Part shown: piece after piece, positions 12,260 to 52,365 of the stretch
Layout: each line of letters opens with the position of its first letter
How positions within the stretch are numbered: position 1 is the first letter of the stretch
Notes under the pieces: model-generated
Seen by the model: only the letters and a program-made list of their open reading frames with translations
Told to the model about the DNA's origin: nothing
Databases searched by the model: none
NCBI GenBank assembly: GCA_965248695.1
Contig: CBDFKD010000002.1
Location: forward strand, 3,136,001-3,200,000
Length of the DNA: 64,000 nucleotides
Direction of reading: 5' to 3'
From: Acidobacteriota bacterium
GTDB lineage: Bacteria > Acidobacteriota > UBA890 > WLXD01
Position numbers and translations under genes: made by a program

Positions 12260-12612
12260 GGGGGCGTCAGGGTTCGACGGGAACACTGAAGCCGAGGCTG
12301 CATGTCGAGCGTCCGCGAATGCTCGTTAATCCCACGCGGAAACCAACACAACTGCCAACACACCGGTAGCTCTGGCGGCTTAAACACCCGTCAGCGTTCC
12401 CCGACCCGGGCCTGCAAGGGTCGGAGCGAACGCCATTCAGCAGGCTGGTCGTCTAGCTCTGTTCGGGGGCGAGGCGACGAGACACTACCCGGACTAGCGC
12501 TACGCCAGCTGGCCCGCCGGGTCGGCGCGGCGCGAATCCTTTCGGCGGGATAAGCATGTAGACGCTTCGTGCGGATGGTTTTCGGACGCGGGTTCAATTC
12601 CCGCCGCCTCCA
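12260..12612 (+). ncRNA. ssrA: tmRNA; tag peptide (A)ANTPVALAA
   Basis: 5' GGGGGCG...GGTTCGAC; 3' T-arm GCGGGTTCAATTCCCGC then CGCCTCCA acceptor strand; tag reading frame 12354-12383 ends ALAA-TAA. Confidence 0.95.
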
Positions 12613-12614
12613 CT

Positions 12615-39698: not shown

Positions 39699-40322
39699 AT
39701 GGCCTCCAGCGCTCGCTCCTTCCCGATTCGAGTCACCGTTATCGCCGCGACAATCACCGTTGGGCTCGCCGTGTTACTGCTGGCCGTCAACCGACTTGGG
39801 CGCCCAACGGCGGAGACCGAGCCCATCCCCGCCGAAGAACTCGTCGCCAATCTGGGTCCCGATGGCGACCCGGATGCCACACCCGCAGACGACCTGGCAA
39901 CGGCGGCAACCGAGCCAGTCACGCTGCAGCTGTTTCTGATCGATTCCGTCAATCGACGCCTGGTATCGCGCATCCAGCGGCTCGAGGCGCCGATGACGCT
40001 GGCGGCCAAGGCCCAGCTGGCCGTCGAACGGTTGATCGACGCTGTAGGCTCACCGTTGCCGGCCGGCACCGTCGTACGCGAAGTCTGGATATCGACGGCC
40101 GGCGTTGCCTATGTCGACTTCAGTGCCGACCTGCCGGACTCGCTGCCCCGGGGAAGCCTGGCGGAAATTCACGCCGTGTACGGTGTGGTCGGGACCTTGA
40201 CGTCATCGTTTCCGCAGATACGAGCAGTGCAGTTCCTGGTCGACGGTAACGGCGTGGACACGCTCACTGGCCATTTCGACCTCGCTGGCCCGATCTCGCC
40301 GCATCGCGACTGGCTGTACTAG
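39699..40322 (+). CDS. GerMN domain protein
   Basis: N-terminal TM; LPAGT, AYVDFS, VQFLVDG..DTLTGH. Confidence 0.88.
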   Translation: MASSARSFPIRVTVIAATITVGLAVLLLAVNRLGRPTAETEPIPAEELVANLGPDGDPDATPADDLATAATEPVTLQLFLIDSVNRRLVSRIQRLEAPMTLAAKAQLAVERLIDAVGSPLPAGTVVREVWISTAGVAYVDFSADLPDSLPRGSLAEIHAVYGVVGTLTSSFPQIRAVQFLVDGNGVDTLTGHFDLAGPISPHRDWLY

Positions 40323-40606
40323 TGGCCTGTAACAGATGAACGTTGCCTATCGTGGTGGCGAAATGGGCTCGGATGCCAGGCGCTACGACGAGACGATGTT
40401 GGCCCATCTTCGAGGAGGAGCAACGGGGCAGACGGGTCCATTTCGCCACTGTTCTCTTGATGGGCCTACGGACAGATGGGCAGTTGCGGGCGATATCGGC
40501 GTTGCACCTCGTCGACGATGCTCACTGCATCGCCGTCCTCGCCGCGCCTTGATCTCACCCGCAAATCCCATCTGCGATAGGCAACGTTCATCTGTTACAG
40601 GCCACT
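40321..40606. mobile_element. MITE-like element with 32-bp perfect terminal inverted repeats
   Basis: AGTGGCCTGTAACAGATGAACGTTGCCTATCG (40321-40352) and exact reverse complement (40575-40606); two internal hairpins; no credible ORF. Confidence 0.8.
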
Positions 40607-41239: not shown

Positions 41240-41345
41240 TGCACGGCTGGACACCGACCGGCTCGGCGGGCTCATGGCGCGCGTCGAAACGGTTTCGGCG
41301 TTGTATTCTGACGCCGGGCGGGCGCTTGTTCGTGCGCCTGATTTT

Positions 41346-41419
41346 CGGGGTGTGGCGCAGCTTGGAAGCGCACCTGCTTTGGGAGCAGGGGGCCGGAGGT
41401 TCAAATCCTCTCACCCCGA
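41346..41419 (+). tRNA. tRNA-Pro (TGG), CCA not encoded
   Basis: CGGGGTG/CACCCCG acceptor; CCTGC-TTTGGGA-GCAGG anticodon arm; GGAGGTTCAAATCCTCT T-arm. Confidence 0.95.
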
Positions 41420-41465
41420 CTTGGAATTCCTTTATCTCGTGGTCACATACGACGACACGCAGGGA

Positions 41466-41497
41466 TCGAGTCACCATAGAGTCACCGCAAGAGAGGT
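41466..41497 (+). repeat. Arm-type tandem motif copy A (GAGTCACCATAGAGTCACC)
   Basis: 11-bp-period tandem; near-identical to 44299-44331. Confidence 0.65.
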
Positions 41498-41600
41498 CGA
41501 ACCCCGCCGAGAACCCACAAAATAGCGACTGCCTTCAGCCCGATCGGCGCGCGGCGAAGCCGATGATCGGGATTATTGGGGTTTACAAGACCCCCAATAA

Positions 41601-41643
41601 AACTCATAACCCGAAGGTCGCAGGTTCAAATCCTGCCCCCGCT
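41601..41643 (+). repeat. 3' half of initiator tRNA-fMet, copy 1 (att-core-like)
   Basis: AACTCATAACCCGAAGGTCGCAGGTTCAAATCCTGCCCCCGCT; no 5' half upstream. Confidence 0.85.
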
Positions 41644-41783
41644 GTGCACAGGGGCTATCCCCTCCGCCCGATACTCAATGGTTCGTACGCATTCCTTGAT
41701 TGATCCCTGAGATCGTCGGCACGACCCGGACTGACCGGGATCGAGACGACTCGCTCCGAGACCACTGGCTTCAGAGTCGACTA

Positions 41784-42599
41784 CTAGCTCGAGAGTTGGC
41801 GATCGGCGCGCCGATCTCTGTACAGCGCCGCGGCTGCGACGAGCGTGGCCGCCGCGTACACCAGGTGACCGACCCACATGCCGTGCCACTCGCCCAGAGG
41901 GTGCGGATCGTTGCGCAGGATGTCGACCGCAAAGCGGATCAGGCCGTAGCCGCCGACGAACAACCACAGCACCGTGCCATCGCGCGCTCGCCTCAGAAAC
42001 ACCCACATCAGAAGCGCGAACAGCGCCAGTCCGGCACCGGCCTCGTAGAGCTGCGTCGGGTGTATCGCTACCCCTAGCGGCGCACCCCGTGGGTAGGGGA
42101 GCAGGAGGAAGTTGTAGGTGACAGCCCACGGAAGCTGCGTTGGTGCGCCGTAGCAGCATCCTGCCGCGGAGCAGCCGATCCGTTGGATCGGGATAGCGAG
42201 GCACGCGCTCAGGGCCACGACGTCGAGGCCCTTGAGAGCCGGGATGCCGTAGAGTCGCGAGTAAAGCAGCATGGCAAGCAGGGCGACGGGCAGGGCGATC
42301 AGACTGCTGCTTCCCGTCTCCTGAAGACTCTCGACCAGCGTCGTCCACACTGCGCCGCCCTGCTGTACTTGGGCGACGAAGCGGCCGAGCCCGAAGCTCG
42401 AAGCGACGATCAGCGTGATTGGCGCCACCCAGAGGAACGCCATGTAGGCGTGGTCAGGATCGATGCCTCGTCGCCTGAAGCCGAACCGCCAGATCAGCAA
42501 TCCGACGACAACAGCGACCCCACGGGCGAAGCCGTAGGTGAAAATTGGTAACACATCGCCGCCGGGCAATGGCACCACGTACAGAATCGGCGGAAGCAT
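41784..42599 (-). CDS. Prolipoprotein diacylglyceryl transferase family protein (Lgt paralog)
   Basis: TYG, RIGCSAAGCCYG, HPTQLYE, YGLIRF; multiple TM. Confidence 0.88.
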   Translation of the reverse strand: MLPPILYVVPLPGGDVLPIFTYGFARGVAVVVGLLIWRFGFRRRGIDPDHAYMAFLWVAPITLIVASSFGLGRFVAQVQQGGAVWTTLVESLQETGSSSLIALPVALLAMLLYSRLYGIPALKGLDVVALSACLAIPIQRIGCSAAGCCYGAPTQLPWAVTYNFLLLPYPRGAPLGVAIHPTQLYEAGAGLALFALLMWVFLRRARDGTVLWLFVGGYGLIRFAVDILRNDPHPLGEWHGMWVGHLVYAAATLVAAAALYRDRRADRQLSS

Positions 42600-42735
42600 G
42601 CCGTAAATCGTATGCCGTGCGCGACCGCCGGCGAAATCGCCGGCGGCGAGGATTCTATCGGGAGCGGCGGTTCGCCCCTTGTACGAACCGAGCGACTGAG
42701 CGTAGGCTGCGGCCTTTGGGTAACAGGGAACGTGC

Positions 42736-43839
42736 ATGAGTACCGACCAGCCGGCCGACGAACACACGACGTTCTGCTTGCCGTCCAGCCGCGGCGTCCT
42801 GCGCGCCGTGGTCGTGGGCTGTTTGCTACCGCTGGTTCTTATCGGGGCGTCGACCACCGGGAGCGGCTGTTGCGGATGCTCGATCGATTCCGCATCGTTC
42901 AGTTCGCGGGGCACGGGCGCGGCCGATCCCTACTCGCTGAGCTTCCTCGGCGGCACGGCCGCGATCTCCTTTCCCGACCCGGACGGTAGCGAGATCGTCG
43001 CCAACAACGCGCGCACGCTGATCACGACCATTACTCCCGGATTGCCCGTCTTGTTCCCGGAGGGGACCCTGACCGTGACCGGCACCGCTGCCAAGGTGGC
43101 GGGGCGAGGCGGGGCGCCGCCCAAGAAACTCCTGATGGACGCGGATCACAAGGCAGCAGGCGAGTCCGCAGCCAAGGTCTTCTCCACGGTCCTGAAGATC
43201 AAGAACGGAAAGATCAAACAGACCAAGGACCAGGTCGACGGCTTCACGGCGCAGCCGGGTGAACGGGTGAGGGTGTTCCTGCGGCCCAGGGGCGGCGCCG
43301 TGACGAACGATCAGACGTACGACCTCACCTACAACTACGCCCCCACACCCGCGGGGCTGGCGGCGGCGATGCGCGAATACGGTTGGACAGCGCTGAGTGC
43401 GATCGAGACGGGGCGCCGCCTGTTGTCGACGGTGCCGGATGGCGCCGGAGCACTGCCTCTATTGTTCCGGGCCAACCGCACGATCGAGGCGAAGGCGAAG
43501 CAGGACGTAGTGAGTGTCGTGTACGGCGTTGCCTTCGAAACGGCAGCTTTCGACCTGGCGGTCGGCGCTGGCTTCTTCGGGCAGGGCGCCAGTAAGTCGT
43601 TGGCGCCCAAGCGCGTCACGGTATTCGTGGTAATACGTGACGCCGAAGGTAACACGAAGCTGTCGGTGACCTACAAGCTCGCGGTCCAGAACAACAACGT
43701 CGCTCTGGTCACCAAGGCGATCGAAGCGCTGAGCATCGAACCCGGCGACGAGCTCGATATTCAGATGAAGCTCAATGGCGGAGACGTCAACCCGGGCGAC
43801 GGCGTGTTCATTTTCCTCACCGCCACGCCGAGTCCTTGA
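42736..43839 (+). CDS. Hypothetical exported protein, Cys-rich N-terminus and two internal beta-rich repeats
   Basis: Hydrophobic leader followed by GSGCCGC; repeats PPKK...QPGERV...GG...APTP and APKR...EPGDEL...GG...ATPSP. Confidence 0.7.
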   Translation: MSTDQPADEHTTFCLPSSRGVLRAVVVGCLLPLVLIGASTTGSGCCGCSIDSASFSSRGTGAADPYSLSFLGGTAAISFPDPDGSEIVANNARTLITTITPGLPVLFPEGTLTVTGTAAKVAGRGGAPPKKLLMDADHKAAGESAAKVFSTVLKIKNGKIKQTKDQVDGFTAQPGERVRVFLRPRGGAVTNDQTYDLTYNYAPTPAGLAAAMREYGWTALSAIETGRRLLSTVPDGAGALPLLFRANRTIEAKAKQDVVSVVYGVAFETAAFDLAVGAGFFGQGASKSLAPKRVTVFVVIRDAEGNTKLSVTYKLAVQNNNVALVTKAIEALSIEPGDELDIQMKLNGGDVNPGDGVFIFLTATPSP

Positions 43840-43973
43840 CGAGGACGGCTGGCAGCTCCTCTCCCTACGCGGTGCGCGTCTTCGCGGCCCGAATCTGCCT
43901 GAATCGCCTGGCATCACTCACTGCGACCAGTACTAGCAGGCTCGGCTCGCGCTGCCGTCCAGCGGGGTCCGAT

Positions 43974-44019
<46 letters not shown>

Positions 44020-44178
44020 CCAGAACGTCCCGAATGGCGCAGCGATTTTTCCCCGTGCTCGTCACCGGGGCTTTCTGCGTCGCGGGTCGATATCTAACAG
44101 CCATCTAACGATCGATAGCGATTGACAGTCCGCACGTCCCAGATCGATCGGAAGAAGGCGACCCCACGTTGCTGATCG

Positions 44179-44231
44179 GAGCAACTGATCCGTAATCAGC
44201 AGGTCCGCGGTTCGAATCCGCGCGCCGGCTC
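44179..44231 (+). repeat. 3' part of a tRNA-Thr(CGT) (att-core-like fragment)
   Basis: GAGCAA-CTGAT-CCGTAAT-CAG...CGCGGTTCGAATCCGCG-CGCCGGC-T; no matching GCCGGCG 5' strand upstream. Confidence 0.8.
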
Positions 44232-44247
44232 TTTGTAAGCCTCGCAG

Positions 44248-44260
44248 AATCAATATCTTG
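44248..44260 (+). promoter_or_regulatory. IHF-consensus site
   Basis: AATCAA-TATC-TTG matches WATCAA-N4-TTR exactly. Confidence 0.55.
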
Positions 44261-44298
44261 CGGGGCTCCAGCTTCTTGTTTGCCTAGGGCGGTCTAAG

Positions 44299-44331
44299 TC
44301 GAGTGACCATAGAGTGACCACGCGGAGAGGT
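44299..44331 (+). repeat. Arm-type tandem motif copy B (GAGTGACCATAGAGTGACC)
   Basis: tcgagtgaccatagagtgaccacgcggagaggt vs tcgagtcaccatagagtcaccgcaagagaggt. Confidence 0.65.
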
Positions 44332-44590
44332 TTCGCTGTCGGTTTCAGCGCCCCTAGAAGGCTTGCGCGCTCATCGCTTGGCGGTCACTTAGCCGCCTGC
44401 TACGCGACCTCACGCCTGATCCGGTAGAGCGTGCGCTCGTGCACATCGAGGCGGATACGGCGCTGGCTGAGGTGCGGCTCGCCTCACTCATGGCGTAATG
44501 CATAGGGTCGCCAGCGCTCGATAAAGGCATCCTGATGGCATTCATTCAAACAACCTCGGGCACCGCACTCCGGCGTCGCTACTTGCCTAT

Positions 44591-45988
44591 TTAGGCATCA
44601 CCCGCGACGACGTTCGGAAGGCCAGCGAGCGCATCGAGATTTGACGCTGGGTGAACGCTACCCAGCGCCTGTTTCGGCTTGACGAAGAACGTCGCCACCC
44701 GCAGCTCACTACTCGTCGCCGACGTGGTCTGCTCCCACGCGACGATGCCGTTGGGGTCGTCGTCCAGGAAGGTGGAGCGATTGTCGGCGCGCAGCATCAG
44801 CATCTCCATCGTGTCGAGGTTGCCGCCATGCGACGCGATGGTCGTCTTCTTGCCGAAGGGCTTGGCGTTAGTGGCCATCTTCCGGTGAACGATGTTGCCA
44901 CCTCGCTCTGCAACAACTACCGGACCCAGGCTCTCCTTCGGAGCCTCGGCTCGGGCCGGTACCAAGAACGGGTCCGGGAGTGCCAAAAGGGCGGCAAATC
45001 CCTTGGAACTCGAGCCGGCGAAGACGAGACTGAGGTCACCTCCGGCCAGGTCGACCTGCCCGACATACGTGAAGGAAACGAGAGACCGGTTCTTTAGTCC
45101 GCTGACTGTGATGCCGAATAATCCGTCACTCCTCGTCTCGATGCGAGACGCGATGACAAGATCGAAACCGCCGTCATTACCCAATCTGTGGATCTCTTGA
45201 AACTGGTCTGTATCCGTATCACGGATCCCAAAGACCAAGTCCGTAGTTTCGGTATCGCGGTATAGCAGCATCTGGTACTGACCAGGACGGCCCGTCTCCG
45301 TCTTGAACTCACTGACATCGAGCACTTCCGCGCTGGGCACTAGGGCGACCGCTGGGGCTGTCTTGTATTTCTTGTCCTGCCGAAGTACGCGGGAAACCAG
45401 GGTAACAACCTTGGCCGCCCCCCTTCCCGCCACGCCGAACTGCGAGTAATATAGGGTAACGTCGACACCCTCGTCGTGTTCATCGACGAGCAGACGGGAC
45501 AGCCCGTTCAAGATCCCGTCCGAGACCAGCGTGCGCAGCTTACCCAGCTTCCCCTTTCTGCTGATCGTTCGGCTTTCCAGCGGGCCGCGTTGGAAGTCCG
45601 TCCAGACAACGAGGTACTCGCGCCGGTCGGGAATCCACGCTACCGCCGGCTCGTTGCGGAACGCCCCTTTGGCACTCAGCCGGTGCAGCGGCCCCGGCTC
45701 GTAGGTCGCCGTTGACCCGCGCCCCGAGCCTCCCTTTCTCGTAAGCAGGCGAGCACGTACCTCGCTGAGCTGAGCGGAGTCCGTGTGCGTCCACACGACG
45801 AGCACGTCGCCGTTGTCGGGATTGGCGGCCAGCTCCGGCAGCGTGTTCTGGAATTGCAGCCCATCGCTGATGACGCTGCCGTCGTCGGCTCCGCTGGCCT
45901 GGTGCCCGGAGCTATCGACCGGCTGCGCCTGTAGACCGATGCTTGCAGCAAGCAACGCCACCGTGACGATACGACCAGGGGCTTTCAT
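44591..45988 (-). CDS. Hypothetical exported protein (propeller-like P.LA...LVVW repeats)
   Basis: 465-aa ORF; signal peptide; GGAGG RBS upstream. Confidence 0.75.
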   Translation of the reverse strand: MKAPGRIVTVALLAASIGLQAQPVDSSGHQASGADDGSVISDGLQFQNTLPELAANPDNGDVLVVWTHTDSAQLSEVRARLLTRKGGSGRGSTATYEPGPLHRLSAKGAFRNEPAVAWIPDRREYLVVWTDFQRGPLESRTISRKGKLGKLRTLVSDGILNGLSRLLVDEHDEGVDVTLYYSQFGVAGRGAAKVVTLVSRVLRQDKKYKTAPAVALVPSAEVLDVSEFKTETGRPGQYQMLLYRDTETTDLVFGIRDTDTDQFQEIHRLGNDGGFDLVIASRIETRSDGLFGITVSGLKNRSLVSFTYVGQVDLAGGDLSLVFAGSSSKGFAALLALPDPFLVPARAEAPKESLGPVVVAERGGNIVHRKMATNAKPFGKKTTIASHGGNLDTMEMLMLRADNRSTFLDDDPNGIVAWEQTTSATSSELRVATFFVKPKQALGSVHPASNLDALAGLPNVVAGDA

Positions 45989-46182
45989 CGATGACCTCCG
46001 GCGAGTGCGTTTGCATCCAGGCGTCTCTACGAGCGCCAGGAGAGACTCAGCCTACAGGCGTGGCCTGGGTGTGAACACTCGCAGAGTCAGAACAGTCGGC
46101 ACGGTCGAGTCCTAGCCCCGCTGCCGCGCGCCTCCTTGCACCTCCTCCCGTTGTATTGGCTGTGCGATTCGGCAAGGATGGC

Positions 46183-47545
46183 GGATCCGGCCCGAGTCCT
46201 GTGGAAATAAAGATGGCGTAACCTCCGAGTAGGAAAAACACAAAGCCGCCACGAGCGGCAGGAGGCTACGCCGTGAAGCAGGTTAGCACGGAGGGAACCG
46301 GGCTCGTCGAGTTCCGGCAGGACGTACAGGCGCTGTTGCGCACCAGGATCCGCGAGGCGATCCAGATGACGCTTGACGAGGAGCTCACCGAGGCGCTGGG
46401 TTGCGACCGATACGAGCGCAACGGGCAGCGGCGAGGCTACCGCAACGGCAGCCAAAGGCGTCGGGTGACGACAGCCCAAGGGCTCCAGGAGCTGGACATA
46501 CCGCGGGGGCGCATCGTGGGGCAAGACGGCAGCACCCGAGAGTTCCGCAGCGCGATCCTGCCACGGTACGCACGGCGAGCCCGGCAGGTGGACGAGGCGA
46601 TCCTGGGAGCATACCTGGCGGGAGCCAACACCCGGCGGATCCGCAAGGCGCTCTCTCCGCTGCTGGGCAAGGCGCACCTGACCAAGAGCACGATCTCCAG
46701 GGTGGTGGGGCGCCTGAAGGCGTACTTCGAGCGCTGGAGACAGCGAGATGTGTCAGGCGAGCGGTACTGGATCCTGTATTTGGACGGGTTCCATCTGAAG
46801 GTCAGGCTGGCGAGGCGGGTCGTGTCGGCGCCGGTACTGGCGGTGCTCGGGGTCCAGCCCGACGGCCAGAAGGTGTTGGTAGCGTTGCAGTTGGCGGTCT
46901 CGGAGGCAGCGGTGCACTGGCAAGGACTGATCGAGTCGCTGGTGAGACGAGGGCTGCAGGCGCCGGAGGTGCTGATCGCCGACGGCCACAAGGGCCTGGC
47001 CAAGGCGATCGAGGTATGGCCCGATGTGTCGGTGCAGCGGTGCACACAACACAAGTGGAGCAACTTACGCGACCACTGCCCGGTTCATGCACGTGCGGAG
47101 ATGAAGCGGGACTGGGATGCGATCGTCCGGGCCGATGACGGCAACCAGGCCAGAGCCGCCTACGCCGCCTTCGTACGCAAGTGGTCGACCCTCGTGCCCG
47201 CCGTGGCCCGGAGCCTGCAGGAGGCCGGCTTGAACCTGCTGACTTTCTACCAGTTCCCGAAGCCGATGTGGAAGACGCTGCGCACCACCAACGCCCTCGA
47301 GAACCTGAACCGGGAGTTCCGTCGTCGTACCAAGACGCAGGGCTCGTTCTCGACCGAGGCCGCTGGGGTGACGTTGCTGTGGAGCCTGGTCGCCTTCGGC
47401 CAGATCCGCATGCGACGCATCGATGGCCACCGGTTCTTGGCTCAGCTCACGTGCGGCCCCGACAAACAGGCCGCCTAACCGATAGGATCATCCGTCGTCG
47501 CGGAGGAGACGCTCATCCAATTTCCACGACATTCGGGGCACATCC
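46183..47545 (+). mobile_element. IS256-family insertion sequence
   Basis: Imperfect ~40-bp terminal IRs (GGAT...CCCGA..GTGGAAAT...GATG..CGT..CCTCC) around the transposase; no target duplication seen. Confidence 0.85.
46273..47478 (+). CDS. IS256 family (Mutator) transposase
   Basis: GYRNG, IPRGR, YLDG, ADGHKGL, QRCTQH, RTTNALENLNREFRRRTK. Confidence 0.96.
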   Translation: MKQVSTEGTGLVEFRQDVQALLRTRIREAIQMTLDEELTEALGCDRYERNGQRRGYRNGSQRRRVTTAQGLQELDIPRGRIVGQDGSTREFRSAILPRYARRARQVDEAILGAYLAGANTRRIRKALSPLLGKAHLTKSTISRVVGRLKAYFERWRQRDVSGERYWILYLDGFHLKVRLARRVVSAPVLAVLGVQPDGQKVLVALQLAVSEAAVHWQGLIESLVRRGLQAPEVLIADGHKGLAKAIEVWPDVSVQRCTQHKWSNLRDHCPVHARAEMKRDWDAIVRADDGNQARAAYAAFVRKWSTLVPAVARSLQEAGLNLLTFYQFPKPMWKTLRTTNALENLNREFRRRTKTQGSFSTEAAGVTLLWSLVAFGQIRMRRIDGHRFLAQLTCGPDKQAA

Positions 47546-47712
47546 CCTGGGGCGGAGACGACTACACAGCTCACTGCGGCGGGCGTTCTTCTGGGCACCC
47601 CGGCGTTCGCGTCGCCCGAGCAGCTCCGAGGAGACCGGGACCTGGACGTCCGGTCCGATATCTACTCCGTCGGGGCCACCCTCTTCTGGTTGCTGACCGG
47701 GCGGCCACGCTC
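47546..47712 (+). pseudogene. Remnant of a Hanks-type Ser/Thr protein kinase (subdomains VIII-IX)
   Basis: Translates to QLTAAGVLLGTPAFASPEQLRGDRDLDVRSDIYSVGATLFWLLTGRP. Confidence 0.8.
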
Positions 47713-47921
47713 TTTAGATTCAATAAGTTATAGCCAGTCACTCTGGACACTTCCGTGTAGGGGGTCGGTATGGGGGTCGGCGAGTGACTTACGGATCGAC
47801 GTTGTTGGTGCCGGCTACGCTCCGCTCCGCCGGCTCCAACAATCTCTTGTCAGCACAGATTCTATGAGTTACGAAGTGGCCTCAACACTTGGGGCAGGTC
47901 ATAGGAGCCTAAGAAGAGGGC

Positions 47922-47954
47922 GGGGTCGGAGGTTCAAATCCTCTTACCCCGACT
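47922..47954 (+). repeat. Duplicated tRNA-Pro 3' end (attR-like)
   Basis: GGGGTCGGAGGTTCAAATCCTCTTACCCCGACT, two mismatches to 41389-41421. Confidence 0.85.
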
Positions 47955-48074
47955 CAACAAGCGGTTTCCGCGGGCGGAGATCTGGCCTGACGGACGAGCC
48001 TACCGGGCGCGCGCGCGCCCGACGGCGGCGGTCCCGAGAGCGCGAACGCTTCAAATCACAAGGGAGGAGGGCCC

Positions 48075-49058
48075 ATGTTTGTCCCAGAAACGTTTGCCAT
48101 CGCCATGGTGATGATGATCACGAGCACCGTGTGTTGGGGTTCGTGGGCAAACACGTCCAAGCTCACCACGGACTACCGATTCGAGCTGTTCTACTGGGAC
48201 TATGCGCTCGGCATCTTTCTCGTCTCCCTGATCCTCGCCTTCACCATGGGCTCGACCGGCGGCGAGGGCGAGGGTTTTCTGGCCAATGTGGCGGTCGCCG
48301 ACCGGGGCAACATCGTCTCGGCCCTGATCGGCGGGTTCATCTTCAACATCGCGAATCTGCTTCTTGTCGCTGGCATCGACCTCGCAGGCCTGGCAGTGGC
48401 TTTCCCGGTTTCGATCGGTATCGCTCTGGTCGTCGGAGTCGTCATGAGTTACGCCATCCAGCCGGTTGGCGATCCGATGCTCCTTGGCCTCGGCGTGGCC
48501 CTCGCGATCATCGCGGTGATCCTGATCGGCAAGGCGTACGGCCGCCTCGCAACCGATGGTGAGGCGGTCTCCCGCAGGAGCCTGATGATCTGTGTGATCT
48601 CGGGGCTCCTGATGGGCTCCTTCGCGCCGTTCGTGACCAGTGCACTCACCGCAGGACATCCCTTGAGTCCTTACAGCATCGCCGTGTTCTTCACCCTCGG
48701 CGCTCTTCTCTGCTGTTTTGTGGTCAACGTGTATTTCATGAAGAAGCCCCTGGTCGGGACACCGGTCAATTTCTCGGGCTTCTTCTCGGCCGGCCCCAGA
48801 AACCATGCGCTCGGAATTCTGGGTGGCTTCATCTGGGGTACCGGCACGGTGTTCAACTTCGTCGCGGCGAGCCTCGTCGGCGTGCCGATCTCGTATGCCG
48901 TCGGTCAGGCAGCCCCGATGGTGGCGGCGACCTGGGGGGTCTTCGTATGGCATGAATTCAAGGGCGCGGACAAGAAGGCGAAGCAATACCTCACGTTCAT
49001 GTTCCTCTTCTACATTCTCGCGCTGGTCGCCATCGCGAGCGCCTACAACGCGGGCTAG
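48075..49058 (+). CDS. GRP/ureide-permease-like sugar transporter (DMT superfamily), probably ribose uptake
   Basis: CWGSWAN, FELFYWDY, ten TM, WGVFVWHEF; directly upstream of ribokinase. Confidence 0.82.
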   Translation: MFVPETFAIAMVMMITSTVCWGSWANTSKLTTDYRFELFYWDYALGIFLVSLILAFTMGSTGGEGEGFLANVAVADRGNIVSALIGGFIFNIANLLLVAGIDLAGLAVAFPVSIGIALVVGVVMSYAIQPVGDPMLLGLGVALAIIAVILIGKAYGRLATDGEAVSRRSLMICVISGLLMGSFAPFVTSALTAGHPLSPYSIAVFFTLGALLCCFVVNVYFMKKPLVGTPVNFSGFFSAGPRNHALGILGGFIWGTGTVFNFVAASLVGVPISYAVGQAAPMVAATWGVFVWHEFKGADKKAKQYLTFMFLFYILALVAIASAYNAG

Positions 49059-49060
49059 AT

Positions 49061-49993
49061 ATGACAAAGACTTCTCATGTCGCCGTCGTCGGCAGCGCCA
49101 ACATCGATCTCACGACCTTCAACGACCGCTGGCCCCGCGGCGGCGAGACCATCTTCGGCGAGAGCTTCGACATCGGCTTCGGCGGCAAAGGCGCCAACCA
49201 GGCCGTGGCGGCCAAGCTCTGCGGCGCCGACGTTTCGATGGTCGCCTGCGTCGGCAACGATCTGTTCGGACCCTCGACGGTCGAGAACTTCGAAGCCCAG
49301 GGCATCAACGCCGACCACGTCCAGATCGTCGAGGGAATCTCGAGCGGCGTGGCACCTATTTTCGTGGACACGGCCTCGGGTCAAAACCGGATCCTGGTCG
49401 TTCCGGGAGCCAACAACAAGGTGCTCCCGGCCACGGTCGATGCGGCCTCGGAACTGCTCAAGACAGCGGACTGCATCGTCCTTCAGTTCGAGATTCCGCT
49501 CGAGACCGTCTACTACGCGATTCGCTTTGCCCACGAGAACGGCATCCGCTGCATTCTCAACCCGGCACCGGGCCAGGCGGTCGATATGGAGCAGGTCGCG
49601 AAACTCGATTACTTCGTGCCCAACGAGACCGAGGCTGAAGCGGTCACTGGCATTGAGGTCAAGAGCGTCGACGACGCCAAGCGCTGCGCCGAGAAGCTAC
49701 TCGGAGCCGGCATCAAGCGCGTCATCATCACCCTCGGTTCGATGGGCTCTCTCCTCGCAGGCGCGGAAGGCATGGAGCACGTTCCGGCCTTCGAAGTGAA
49801 CGCGGTCGACACCACCGGAGCGGGTGACGCTTTCATCGGCAGCTTCTCGGTATTCCTTGGCGAAGGTCTGGATGAAATGGGGGCCGTGAGACGGGCGAAT
49901 CTCTACGCCGGCCTCTCGACGACGGGCGTGGGCACCCAGAAGTCGTTCTTGAATCGAGCCGCTTTCGACGCTGCGTGGGCCGAACGGAAGTGA
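49061..49993 (+). CDS. rbsK: Ribokinase
   Basis: VVGSANID, GGKGANQA, NPAP, PNETE, DTTGAGDAF. Confidence 0.93.
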   Translation: MTKTSHVAVVGSANIDLTTFNDRWPRGGETIFGESFDIGFGGKGANQAVAAKLCGADVSMVACVGNDLFGPSTVENFEAQGINADHVQIVEGISSGVAPIFVDTASGQNRILVVPGANNKVLPATVDAASELLKTADCIVLQFEIPLETVYYAIRFAHENGIRCILNPAPGQAVDMEQVAKLDYFVPNETEAEAVTGIEVKSVDDAKRCAEKLLGAGIKRVIITLGSMGSLLAGAEGMEHVPAFEVNAVDTTGAGDAFIGSFSVFLGEGLDEMGAVRRANLYAGLSTTGVGTQKSFLNRAAFDAAWAERK

Positions 49994-49994
49994 A

Positions 49995-51056
49995 TTACGG
50001 CTGCGCCGGAGGCCGCCGCATAAGCTCGACAAACAACCTCTCGAAACGCTCCAAGTCGATGTCCGTTTGCACCGTCCAGGTGTTGCCGGCAAACCACGGC
50101 TCGGTGCCATCGGATGTCCAGACCGTCTTGCCATAGCTCGGTCCCGGCAGGTAGTCCACGTCTAGCCGCAGCTCTTCGGTCTCGGTGATGATTCCGGGAT
50201 CGATTATCGCGGCCGCGGCCAGCTCGTCACACATATAGCTATAGCCACGGTCCAACTCGAGATAGCTCACCCGCAGGAACTCCGCCAGCGGCGTGCCCGC
50301 ATCCGCGATCTGCTCGATCATCTCTTTGGTCATGTAGGTCTTCGGACAGACGTCGATCGGCGTCAGGTGCCGTTCCTTCCAGGGCGCGCGAACGTGAATG
50401 AACGCCGCTTCAGCGTCCCACCAGAAGTTGAATCGCTGATTGGTGTGGATGTGTCCGCCCATGGTGTAGACGGCTTTGATCTTGTCGACGATGTCGGGCG
50501 CCAGGCGAATCGCGAGCGCTATGTTCGTGAGCGGTCCCGCCGTGTGGAGTACCAGCTCACCCGGATACCTTCGAGCCATCTCGATCAGGAGCTCAGCAGC
50601 GGTCTTGTCGACCACTCTCAGCTTGACCGGGCCTCCGGGCTCTTGGTCGATAACTTCCCTGGGGTCCACCCACTCGCCCCAGTTGCCGTGCCAACCGTCA
50701 CCGCCCTTGTCGCCCCAGAGCTCTTCGCGTCGCTTCATCATCTCTTGCGAGTTCAAAAGCGGCACTTCCGAGCCCGCCGCGACCGGCACCTGTGTCTGGC
50801 CTGTCAACTCGACGATCTTGAGTGTGTGATAGACGGCCTGATCGAGCCACGCATCGCCGGCTACCACGCCGATACCGACGACCTCGATGTTGGGCGCCTG
50901 CAGCAGCATGGCGATCGAAACCGAGTCCGTCCCAGCCGGGCCGGACGTGTCCTGATCGATGAAAACCTTGACACGCTCGTGATCGTCGGCACGAACCGGA
51001 GCCGTAGGTGCGAAAACCAACCCGATCGCCAGGCAAGAAAGTGCGAAACGACACAT
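49995..51056 (-). CDS. Exported nucleoside hydrolase (IUNH family)
   Basis: Signal peptide; IDQDTSGPAGTD, GPLTNIALA, MGG, FNFWWDAEAA. Confidence 0.88.
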   Translation of the reverse strand: MCRFALSCLAIGLVFAPTAPVRADDHERVKVFIDQDTSGPAGTDSVSIAMLLQAPNIEVVGIGVVAGDAWLDQAVYHTLKIVELTGQTQVPVAAGSEVPLLNSQEMMKRREELWGDKGGDGWHGNWGEWVDPREVIDQEPGGPVKLRVVDKTAAELLIEMARRYPGELVLHTAGPLTNIALAIRLAPDIVDKIKAVYTMGGHIHTNQRFNFWWDAEAAFIHVRAPWKERHLTPIDVCPKTYMTKEMIEQIADAGTPLAEFLRVSYLELDRGYSYMCDELAAAAIIDPGIITETEELRLDVDYLPGPSYGKTVWTSDGTEPWFAGNTWTVQTDIDLERFERLFVELMRRPPAQP

Positions 51057-51159
51057 GGAGCTTCTCCTGTCTCCGCCGTTGAGCCGCGAGTGCATCGCGG
51101 CCTTTCTTGAGGCGGCCGCATAATTCGCTCGCGAGAATGCATGATGGAACCCGGTCCGG

Positions 51160-52365
51160 CTAGCCGAGCTTCCTGAGGATCATGCACTTCAGGTAGCGGC
51201 TCTCGGGCATACCGATGCGAATCGGGTGATCGCTACTCTGGCCCCCCCGATGCACGAGGATCAGCTCGGCTCGCACATCAGCGGCCGCCTGCTCGATCAA
51301 TTCCAGGAAATCTGCCTCGCTGATGTGATAGGAGCAGCTCGAAGTCACCAGGTAGCCGCCGGGCCGCAGCAGCTTGAGGGCACGCAGGTTGATCTCCTTG
51401 TAGCCACCGCGCGCACTTTCTACCGCCGCCTTGTTCTTGGCGAACGCCGGCGGATCGAGCACGATCGTGTCGAAGCTTTCTCCGCGATCGACGAGCTCGC
51501 GTAGGTGATCGAAGACGTTGACGGCTCGCGCGTCGATGCTGGCCTCGTTGATGGCGGCGTTGCGCTCGATCGCCGCTACTGCTTCTTCGGAAATGTCGAG
51601 CGCCACCACCTCGTCACAGCTTGGAGCGAGCTGCAGCGCGAAGGCTCCCTGGTAGCTGAAGCAATCCAGTAGCCGTCCGCGGGCAACGGTGGCGGCAGCG
51701 GCGCGATTCTCCCGCTGATCAAGAAACAGACCGGTCTTCTGGCCGCCGTGGAGATCGACTTCCAGCTGCGCCTGGCCGTCGCGGATCTGCACGCGATCTG
51801 GAATCTCGCCATGCACAACATCCACACGGCGCTCCAACCCCTCGAGCGTACGTACCCGTCCATCGTTGCGCGCCAGGACGCCGGCCGGCGACAGGAGATC
51901 CACCAGCAACTCGACGATCTCGTCGGTGCGGCGGTCGATGCCCTGGGCGAGCGTCTGCACCACCAAATAGTCGCCGTAGCGGTCGACGATCAGCGCCGGC
52001 AGCCAATCAGCTTCGGCGTGCACCAGCCGGTAGGCGTCGGCGTCGATCTCGAGCGCCTGGCGGTAGTCGATCGCCGCCTGCAGGCGCTCGCGCCACAGCC
52101 GCAGATCCGGCCGCGGTCCGCGATCACAGAAGCGGCGTAGCGCGATCTGCGACGCGTCGCTATAGAGCGCGTAGCCGACGTCACGGCCGCGCGGTCCCCT
52201 AACGCGAACGAGATCTCCGGACGCCGCTTTGATCTCGTGCAGATCGCTACGGTAGATCCACGGGTGCGACCCGTTGGCACGGCGGGCGCCTCGACGGGTA
52301 AGCACGACCTGAGGCTGCGTCGGCGTCTCGACGTGGGTTTCGCTCTCGGCGCTCGGCTCGACCAT
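51160..52365 (-). CDS. RlmI-like class I SAM-dependent rRNA methyltransferase with PUA domain
   Basis: HPWIY, HAEAD.LP.LIVDRY, GQKTGLFLDQRENR, LDPPAF, SSCS. Confidence 0.92.
   Translation of the reverse strand: MVEPSAESETHVETPTQPQVVLTRRGARRANGSHPWIYRSDLHEIKAASGDLVRVRGPRGRDVGYALYSDASQIALRRFCDRGPRPDLRLWRERLQAAIDYRQALEIDADAYRLVHAEADWLPALIVDRYGDYLVVQTLAQGIDRRTDEIVELLVDLLSPAGVLARNDGRVRTLEGLERRVDVVHGEIPDRVQIRDGQAQLEVDLHGGQKTGLFLDQRENRAAAATVARGRLLDCFSYQGAFALQLAPSCDEVVALDISEEAVAAIERNAAINEASIDARAVNVFDHLRELVDRGESFDTIVLDPPAFAKNKAAVESARGGYKEINLRALKLLRPGGYLVTSSCSYHISEADFLELIEQAAADVRAELILVHRGGQSSDHPIRIGMPESRYLKCMILRKLG

Follow-up and report, generated by a model that had tools for sequence, protein, structure and literature searches.

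How do the 3' parts of three different transfer RNAs (tRNAs) come to be lined up in one genomic island that encodes no integrase? The locus that raises this question lies behind a tRNA-Pro(TGG) gene of an Acidobacteriota bacterium (genome G000; 5.89 Mb, 65% G+C, 2 contigs). We analyzed a stretch of 64,000 nucleotides (nt) around it, G000:C2:3136001-3200000 (contig CBDFKD010000002.1 of assembly GCA_965248695.1), which we call the window and whose own numbering is used below unless a contig is named. An earlier reading of its letters, hereafter the original prediction, had seen in it an array of small cassettes captured at portable tRNA-derived attachment (att) sites. We find that the window carries a dispersed module of about 0.4 kb with two att cores, one of tRNA-fMet and one of tRNA-Thr(CGT), and that this module is split at both cores. 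The island as a whole is probably a composite fossil, formed by serial site-specific accretion and nesting at tRNA-Pro(TGG) and then decayed.

To map tRNA fragments, all 59 ARAGORN calls were aligned by BLAST against the whole genome, and Rfam tRNA scores were read against the gathering score of 29 bits. The tRNA-derived pieces and the sequences adjoining them are as follows.

41346-41420, + strand: intact tRNA-Pro(TGG) gene (ARAGORN; Rfam 63.7 bits), left boundary (attL side) of the island
41421-41568, + strand: Pro-side arm of 148 bp, with two GAGTCACC repeats at 41468-41486
41569-41602, + strand: hairpin Y, the element-side flank in front of the core at fMet attR sites
41603-41645, + strand: fMet core 1, anticodon loop to 3' end, the last two bases differing from tRNA-fMet
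43976-44018, + strand: fMet core 2 (BLAST 38/39 over 43980-44018, E 3.3e-13)
44019-44178, + strand: flank X (to 44081), then a spacer with two ATCTAAC repeats
44162-44231, + strand: pseudo-tRNA-Thr(CGT), nt 21-73 kept, 5' part decayed
47922-47954, + strand: Pro 3' repeat (attR side), 30/32 identical to nt 44-75 of tRNA-Pro over 47922-47953 (BLAST, E 1.2e-6)

All pieces named in the original prediction (the full Pro gene, two fMet 3' halves, a Thr part and a Pro 3' end) are present on the + strand where it had placed them, as located by ARAGORN, Rfam and BLAST; only tRNA-Pro scores above the Rfam threshold. Core 1 is identical over 41603-41643 (41/41, E 8.7e-17 in the whole-genome BLAST) to nt 33-73 of the initiator-type tRNA-Met. 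The source gene lies at C2:3669783; in its sequence, position 1:72 is unpaired and the anticodon stem has three G-C pairs, which we take to be initiator features. Core 2 agrees with tRNA-fMet at 41/43 positions by eye, has its anticodon altered to CGT and reaches 25.8 bits; the two cores differ from each other at 4/43 positions. The Thr piece is 51/53 identical to the real tRNA-Thr(CGT) gene over 44179-44231 (BLAST, E 3.5e-19) and spans positions 1-71 of the Rfam tRNA model at 26.5 bits, with a recognizable D-arm and broken acceptor pairs.

Flanking sequence identifies the fMet pieces further. We compared the locus with the congeners G001 to G004 (five congeners with G000), with G006 from a different genus and with a class set of 26 genomes. 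Y plus core 1 has counterparts in the attR of the tRNA-fMet locus of G000 itself (92%) and at two sites in congeners, G003:C30 (89%) and G004:C15 (89%); the own fMet locus and G003:C30 each carry an unsplit Y-core-X site. Flank X is 83-92% identical to the sequence that follows tRNA-fMet and fMet fragments in G000, G003 and G004, and corresponds by homology to the native sequence behind the chromosomal tRNA-fMet gene. We rejected a degenerate native array of tRNA genes because the fMet pieces have the anticodon loop as their exact starting point and have element-side and flank sequence in common with attR sites. A 94-nt 'tRNA-Cys(ACA)' called by ARAGORN at 41552-41645 was likewise discarded: it consists of core 1 and the upstream hairpin, and Rfam gives no tRNA there at E<=1.

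The comparison that carries our argument is with G004. A contiguous stretch of 378 bp on its contig C15 gives three collinear high-scoring segment pairs with the window, at 41569-41643 (89% identity), 43974-44234 (82%) and 47709-47802 (88%). In the query, the first and second overlap over the fMet core, and the second and third over the last 7 nt of the Thr piece. Two further G004 loci, on contigs C10 and C14, show the same three-part pattern. Relative to the unsplit C15 copy, the window has 2330 bp inserted together with a duplicated 43-nt fMet core, and it carries a second insertion, of 3469 bp, where the Thr piece has its 3' end. The following elements complete the order of the island.

41646-43975, both strands: insert M, 2330 bp, between fMet cores 1 and 2
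44232-47700, both strands: insert T, 3469 bp, eroded, following the Thr piece
47701-47796, + strand: Thr 3'-end remnant (up to 12 nt) and right flank of the module, with two GGGGGTCGG repeats
47797-47901: repeat of 105 bp resembling a miniature inverted-repeat transposable element (MITE), between the module and the Pro repeat

The right flank, a fourth junction that the original prediction had not listed, matches what comes directly behind the Thr piece at 88/99 positions in G004:C15 and at 83/99 in G004:C10. If both inserts and the duplicate core are removed, the distance from tRNA-Pro to the end of the Pro repeat shrinks to about 0.7 kb, almost all of it att-like sequence plus the MITE. The original prediction had non-cognate cores bracketing inserts of one or two genes, and the G004 comparison bears this out, both module cores being interrupted exactly at the core. 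It had also taken these cores for scars stacked separately; the pieces are there, but their independence is not, since core 2 and the Thr piece form one conserved block.

A join made by the assembler, in which repeated tRNA-like cores linked contigs of different loci or strains, would also place foreign cores side by side. The cores and flank X are indeed multi-copy. We therefore consulted Logan k-mer contigs built from short reads (4 runs of one sample in one study, probably the source sample), which cover 41395-41630, 41614-44013, 44052-46211 and 47518-47887 without differences from the window. Four junctions are thereby bridged. The first joins tRNA-Pro and core 1, and the second leads from core 1 across the lgt cassette of insert M to core 2. 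The third runs from the spacer across the Thr piece into insert T, and the fourth from the end of the insertion sequence (IS) in insert T across the kinase stump and the module flank to the MITE. The contigs break at 44013/44052 and around the Pro repeat, so that the core 2/X and Pro-repeat junctions are unbridged in the records shown, and contig depths in run X1 vary between segments (13.8, 12.1, 6.9, 3.9 and 13), although the tool states that its depths are not comparable. With these bridges, a genome in 2 contigs and homologous sub-arrangements in G003 and G004, we judge an assembly artefact to be highly improbable.

The module is not peculiar to the tRNA-Pro locus. The block 43975-44234, comprising fMet half, 65-nt flank X, spacer and Thr piece, is present as a whole in three places of G004 (82-89% identity) and partially in G001, G002 and G003. 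Within G004, the C15 copy is enclosed by tRNA-Asp and its cognate 3' fragment, which lie 12.9 kb apart; the C10 copy abuts a Leu(CAG) fragment beside tRNA-Lys/Glu; and the C14 copy is preceded by a 498-aa integrase (PF00589) that ends 160 bp before the fMet core and is followed, after the Thr flank, by an IS6-like transposase (by sequence reading alone). The original prediction of portable tRNA-derived att sites thus stands insofar as the block recurs within the genus in or beside islands at other tRNAs, with three unsplit copies in G004, one of them in the Asp-Asp bracket. When an IUPAC pattern of the module (fMet core, gap of 160-185 nt, Thr core) was searched in a large collection of genome contigs, the 3 stretches retrieved were all the G004 copies, and a slightly looser version had 0 matches in the metagenome contigs of the Joint Genome Institute (JGI).

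The surroundings of the C10 copy (G004:C10, 10000-10980) are dense with tRNA pieces, stacked within 1 kb. The Thr piece and fMet core lie on one strand and the Leu(CAG) 3' fragment abuts them base to base on the other; the stack continues with a tRNA-Lys truncated at its 5' end, an intact tRNA-Glu and one more Thr(CGT) fragment.

A hint of the module's origin comes from G003, the closest relative, whose flanks at the tRNA-Pro site are 89-91% identical to those of G000. On its contig C18, a complete second tRNA-fMet (62.5 bits) stands where the fMet half sits in the window, followed by the same Thr piece and arm; the contig stops 1.2 kb beyond the Thr piece. Given this gene, the homology of X to the native fMet flank and the model-length alignment of the Thr piece, the module most likely descends from an extra tRNA-fMet/tRNA-Thr(CGT) gene pair borne on mobile DNA. 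Upstream of the G003 gene, two open reading frames (ORFs) match a terminase-large-subunit PHROG (2.7e-9 and 2.5e-6) and one matches a DNA methylase Pfam at 0.0065, below the cut-off. These weak phage-like matches are a lead only, namely that the extra tRNA-fMet may be phage-borne.

What was inserted at the two cores? The cargo is as the original prediction described it: an lgt paralog and an exported protein in insert M, and an exported protein, an IS256 element and a kinase remnant in insert T. Insert M holds a pair of genes.

about 41784-42599, - strand: divergent lgt paralog, start inferred (PF01790, 1.2e-31)
42736-43839, + strand: protein P0001, 367 aa, with an N-terminal hydrophobic Cys-rich segment; no family

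The lgt paralog is the third in the genome and is 35-39% identical to the two other Lgt homologs elsewhere. P0001 has no match in Pfam, NCBIfam or PHROGs; its N-terminus consists of a hydrophobic stretch followed by GSGCCGC. The two genes are divergently transcribed, and the pair is present in 3/26 genomes of the class. Behind the G006 pair stands a 17-nt stretch identical to the beginning of the fMet core, and in G003 the pair lies between ordinary genes without a core. A search of metagenome contigs for related P0001 loci gave 287 pattern matches, of which 0 were confirmed. We speculate that lgt and P0001 could form a dedicated lipoprotein-modification pair.

Insert T is larger and more damaged.

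44301, within insert T: Thr-side arm with two GAGTGACC repeats
44354-44545, - strand: ORF of 63 aa, no family match
44591-45988, - strand: exported protein P0002, no family match
46182-47545, + strand: IS256-family element, transposase at 46273-47478 (PF00872, 1.3e-82)
47549-47704, + strand: Ser/Thr-kinase stump of 52 aa

The kinase is cut by the IS on one side and by the Thr-remnant junction on the other. The IS256 element has 10 genomic copies of at least 90% of its length, the window copy included, and no target duplication was seen by eye at its ends. P0002 belongs to no Pfam, NCBIfam or PHROGs family, and the Atlas offers weak leads, whose recognition stayed below the tool's mark (unnamed clusters at 0.92-0.93, a BNR_4 cluster at 0.90). 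By its motif the 63-aa ORF had looked like a helix-turn-helix or excisionase remnant, a claim that we do not make in view of its lack of a family match.

The arms of the island link its Pro and Thr sides. The motif GAGTSACCATAGAGTSACC is shared by the insert T arm, where it stands 70 bp after the Thr piece, and by the 148 bp after tRNA-Pro, and these are its only two occurrences in the genome at <=2 mismatches. The Pro-side arm also aligns with the Thr-side arm and with the sequence downstream of tRNA-Pro in G002. Because the motif is common to both arms and found nowhere else in the genome, it suggests a single family of elements whose targets were the 3' ends of Pro and Thr alike. The G003:C18 locus shares the Thr piece, the arm and the segment 46096-46187; P0002 is missing there, and a kinase-like frame broken by frameshifts (read from the six-frame translation) follows that segment. 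Since this fMet-Thr-T composite occurs in G003 at another locus, it must be older than the tRNA-Pro position or have moved independently of it. Part of the composite therefore probably moved as a block, and the Thr-side insertion probably predates arrival at the tRNA-Pro locus.

How far does the inserted DNA extend? Upstream of the island lie an amidase gene, a Germane-domain gene, a 288-bp repeat and rdgB/Ham1 (Pfam assignments), and the left flank of Germane-domain gene, rdgB/Ham1 and tRNA-Pro(TGG) is kept in 4/4 congeners. In G001 and G004 the site is empty: tRNA-Pro is followed by some 85-105 bp and then by the convergent gene end that corresponds to window position 51160. It follows that 41421-51159 is inserted DNA, which does not end at 47954; the Pro repeat at 47922 splits it into a bracketed island of 6.5 kb and a cluster of 3.2 kb.

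47955-51159: further inserted DNA, without a far-end repeat
48075-49058: RhaT/GlcU-type sugar transporter (Pfam/NCBIfam)
49061-49993: pfkB kinase (Pfam/NCBIfam)
49995-51095, - strand: nucleoside hydrolase (Pfam/NCBIfam)

By eye, no decayed Pro repeat was seen near 51100-51160. Homologs of the transporter occur on other contigs in G001, G002 and G004. In G003 the site holds an unrelated 2.3-kb insert with one flavin adenine dinucleotide (FAD)-oxidoreductase gene, and in G002 a PD40 Ser/Thr kinase, a sulfatase and other genes. The site downstream of rdgB-tRNA-Pro is a hotspot of variable content: it is empty in two of the relatives, and two others carry other DNA there. The original prediction had expected its cassette content to vary among relatives, and it does differ between the five congeners.

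Several observations concern the surroundings. The 288-bp repeat, MITE-like and located at 40319-40606 between the Germane gene and rdgB, has 123 BLAST matches in the genome and is multi-copy in G002-G004, G007 and G013 too. A second, paralogous Germane-rdgB-tRNA-Pro(TGG) copy lies at G000:C2:2836726-2838514 (73-78% identical, with an identical tRNA). A 55-nt 3' fragment of tRNA-Phe follows it after 230 bp and an IS256 copy about 2 kb further on; no Pro repeat occurs within 15 kb of it. The window also contains a transfer-messenger RNA gene at 12260-12613, with the tag peptide ANTPVALAA (ARAGORN).

Which enzymes could have acted on these cores? None of the genome's 13 PF00589 matches falls in the window, and tblastn of 14 integrases against 41300-51200 found no remnant, the best match (E 0.004) lying inside the pfkB gene. 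The statement of the original prediction that no integrase is encoded is thereby confirmed. Of the 13 matches, only a 139-aa fragment (contig C1) has a tRNA within 1 kb, and none is within 50 kb of a gene or fragment of tRNA-fMet, tRNA-Thr(CGT), tRNA-Pro(TGG) or tRNA-Arg(TCT). Nor does G000 encode a close homolog of the fMet-adjacent integrase of G004 (best 33% over 118 aa). G002 and G004 have 35 and 29 PF00589 matches, respectively. In G002, a weak integrase match below the Pfam cut-off (C8:444043) is next to an fMet core at 443780, a PF00589 gene (C9:2987726) lies about 0.9 kb from a Thr core (2989079), and another (C7:598570) stands directly before a tRNA-Arg(TCT) match (599173). Integrases beside fMet, Thr and Arg cores in G002 and G004 indicate that enzymes for such cores exist in the genus, outside this genome. 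The integrases that the original prediction expected at tRNA-fMet, tRNA-Thr and tRNA-Pro were accordingly found beside fMet and Thr cores in relatives and not in G000.

Orphan and non-cognate tRNA fragments are common in this genome by the same whole-genome BLAST. The most regular set involves tRNA-Arg(TCT): at G000:C2:2452044-2479157, seven 5' halves of 39-42 nt lie upstream of the intact gene at a spacing of 2.5-6.4 kb, with an eighth at 2394505. Most are flanked on both sides by conserved arms, 82-95% identical. The run brackets seven islets of 1-3 genes each, encoding pyrroloquinoline quinone (PQQ) dehydrogenases, a PD40 Ser/Thr kinase, amidohydrolases and Calx-beta proteins; it contains no PF00589 gene.

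These data bear on whether the island is an active and selected landing pad of several specificities, whose integrase-less cassettes of 1-3 genes are loaded and unloaded by integrases acting in trans, so that the present content is a snapshot. Both module cores are occupied, the cargo units are small, the content of the hotspot varies between congeners, the tRNA-Arg(TCT) run of the same genome brackets its own integrase-less islets, and the G002 integrase gene directly beside a tRNA-Arg match would fit such loading. Set against this are the lack in G000 of any integrase near an fMet, Thr, Pro(TGG) or Arg(TCT) core and of a close homolog of the G004 enzyme, the 4/43 differences between the fMet cores, the degraded state of insert T, partly shared with G003 at another locus, and the absence of a common promoter or orientation. 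The one-sample Logan contigs contain no trustworthy excision joint, which is not evidence of absence in contigs of this kind; the joints listed (e.g. 41420 to 47922) have sides of 20-22 letters, below the trust limit, and are not precise excision junctions. We consider an active landing pad very unlikely, and the present-day capture by integrases in trans that the original prediction envisaged finds no support in the diverged cores, the erosion, the composite shared with G003 elsewhere and the missing integrases. A wider idea is that the genus runs a tRNA-att cassette economy, in which blocks of att cores would travel in islands as docking sites and integrases of some genomes would load islets of 1-3 genes. 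The fMet/Thr module and the tRNA-Arg(TCT) run would then be two faces of one system, functionally parallel to integrons and built from tRNA halves. We regard this idea as unlikely.

G000 holds further tRNA fragments. ARAGORN's second selenocysteine tRNA ('tRNA-SeC', in G000:C2:4678307-4690597) proves to be a 3' fragment of 76 nt whose 5' end is unrelated; the real gene lies 881 kb away on the other strand. At 4690490, 12 kb beyond the fragment, there is an orphan fMet core accompanied by an X flank, and short stretches there resemble window positions 44416-44476 and 46119-46187; the region may represent a further island rich in fragments, or else a rearrangement. The 16.6-kb interval that separates tRNA-fMet from the convergent tRNA-Val(CAC) (G000:C2:3669783-3686438) holds fMet, Thr, Lys(TTT) and two Val(CAC) fragments and appears to consist of islets stacked from both tRNAs. 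Four Leu(CAA) fragments lie at 4.08-4.11 Mb. The hairpin-containing 105-bp repeat of the island has 73 BLAST matches in the genome, 18 of them at >=90% of full length, and several adjoin tRNA fragments.

With so many repeats, pieces of the fMet locus or of islands could have been joined to tRNA-Pro by homologous recombination (between att modules, IS256 copies or MITEs) or by deletions, with no local site-specific capture and with cores that are old scars made elsewhere. Such rearrangement would draw on the 10 near-full-length IS256 copies and on the 73 and 123 matches of the 105-bp and 288-bp repeats. The SeC and Leu(CAA) fragments lying far from or inverted to their genes, the composite common to G003 at another locus, and the truncated edges of the island, with a Y of only 34 bp and a cut kinase, are all compatible with it. 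However, in comparison with the unsplit G004 copies the breaks lie precisely at the two cores, and the fMet core is duplicated, which is the signature of site-specific integration wherever it occurred; a Pro direct repeat moreover brackets the whole. We consider rearrangement without local capture rather unlikely as the source of the island.

In the reading that we favor, serial accretion followed by decay, tyrosine integrases that are no longer present would have built the island by successive site-specific integrations. The att cores kept in the module would have let fMet-specific elements (at the anticodon loop) and Thr-specific elements (at the 3' end) integrate away from their cognate tRNA genes. 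One integration would have put the 2.3-kb lgt cassette between two fMet cores, and another the 3.5-kb element at the end of the Thr piece, which would later have been hit by IS256 and by deletions that cut the kinase gene at both ends. The whole composite lies between tRNA-Pro and its 3' repeat at a hotspot and would now be immobile unless an integrase is supplied in trans. Because the fMet cores differ at 4/43 positions, the events should be old; this divergence, the erosion, the composite shared with G003 and the lack of integrases together argue for a fossil. The alternative that the original prediction had itself offered, a heavily eroded stack of nested islands, is largely right for the present state.

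Several points weigh against this reading. The integrase mechanism is deduced from the anatomy of the locus, and homologous recombination between dispersed copies could have moved pieces without an integrase. The module pattern was found in one other species genome of the large collection only and in no JGI metagenome contig, so that dispersal is documented within a single genus. Insert M has no Y- or X-like arms at its inner ends, unlike other fMet elements, and the carrier on the Pro side has no recognizable body left. The right copy of the Thr core measures at most 12 nt (10/12 identical), for which a deletion and a very short core are both possible, and a Thr-Thr duplication is thus not established. 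Finally, 3.2 kb follow the Pro repeat without a repeat of their own, and the expectation that the original flank follows attR fails against G001 and G004.

How does the island compare with known systems? In integrons, small cargo lies between repeated recombination sites, and the cassettes lack a recombinase of their own. Our locus resembles them in having small cargo units between repeated sites and no recombinase within the cassettes, but its repeats are direct copies of tRNA segments, its cargo lies on both strands and intI is lacking. There is no PF00589 match in the window (attI and Pc were not searched for), and co-oriented attC cassettes were not found. The integron-like character that the original prediction had suggested is therefore not upheld: with no integrase, no attI/attC-type sites seen and no common orientation of the cargo, the array also has a right-hand insert eroded by IS256 and a twice-cut kinase.

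Islander delimits an island by an intact tRNA gene (tDNA) and a displaced cognate fragment in the same orientation, and requires an integrase; the part of the source consulted reports for its 3919 islands only 4 tandems with at least three members, and 5' fragments in 159 islands (PMC4383910). The tDNA with its cognate 3' fragment fits this type of island, as do the apparent crossovers at the anticodon loop (fMet) and at the T-stem/acceptor (Pro) (PMC4383910). The tRNA-Pro gene and the 32-nt Pro repeat lie 6.5 kb apart on the + strand, within the 2-200 kb range used, and the island is absent from the relatives G001 and G004. In contrast to Islander's islands, it has no integrase inside, so that it fails that filter, and its inner fragments are non-cognate (PMC4383910). 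Island finders that pair a tRNA with its own fragments and require an integrase would miss or mis-delimit such islands.

Tycheposon islands, as the part of the source consulted describes them, lie beside tRNA genes and grow by repeated integration, their elements separated only by partial tRNA copies (bioRxiv 10.1101/2020.12.28.424599). Small cargo modules, degenerated remnants and scattered further partial tRNAs are common to our island and to those of Prochlorococcus, whereas theirs are partial copies of the island's own tRNA and belong to a different phylum (bioRxiv 10.1101/2020.12.28.424599). Of the recombinase and the replication or packaging module that define a tycheposon, our island has no recombinase and shows no replication module, and neither P0001 nor P0002 has a PHROGs match; tycheposon-specific profiles were not searched.

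We did not find a portable block of non-cognate tRNA att pieces described in the parts of the literature examined, although supplementary tables, such as those of tRNA fragments in PMC9897764, may hold cases. Should mobile DNA regularly carry tRNA att cores, an integrase specific for a tRNA would not be bound to one chromosomal address. Islands at one tRNA would then collect cargo of other specificities, which would help to explain orphan tRNA fragments and mosaic islands. The unsplit G004 module, the filled module of the window and the integrases of the relatives form a natural set of substrates for tests of integrase specificity in a poorly studied soil phylum.

Cis-mobilizable elements (CIMEs) keep their att sites and have lost their genes for integration and transfer; new elements enter the resident att sites and form tandems, and composites move as units, according to the part of the source consulted (PMC5704250). 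The island shows this state, with intact fMet-fMet and Pro-Pro brackets, a partial Thr bracket and no integrase; among its ORFs, the general Pfam scan gave no relaxase or conjugation match, no search having been aimed at these. Like ICESt1 and the CIMEs of Streptococcus thermophilus, it would consist of decayed att-retaining elements joined by tandem accretion (PMC5704250). It differs from them in that no integrative and conjugative or integrative and mobilizable element (ICE or IME) accompanies it as a partner, that three specificities (Pro, fMet and Thr) are combined, and that the reused att sites are pieces of non-host tRNAs carried on a small dispersed block.

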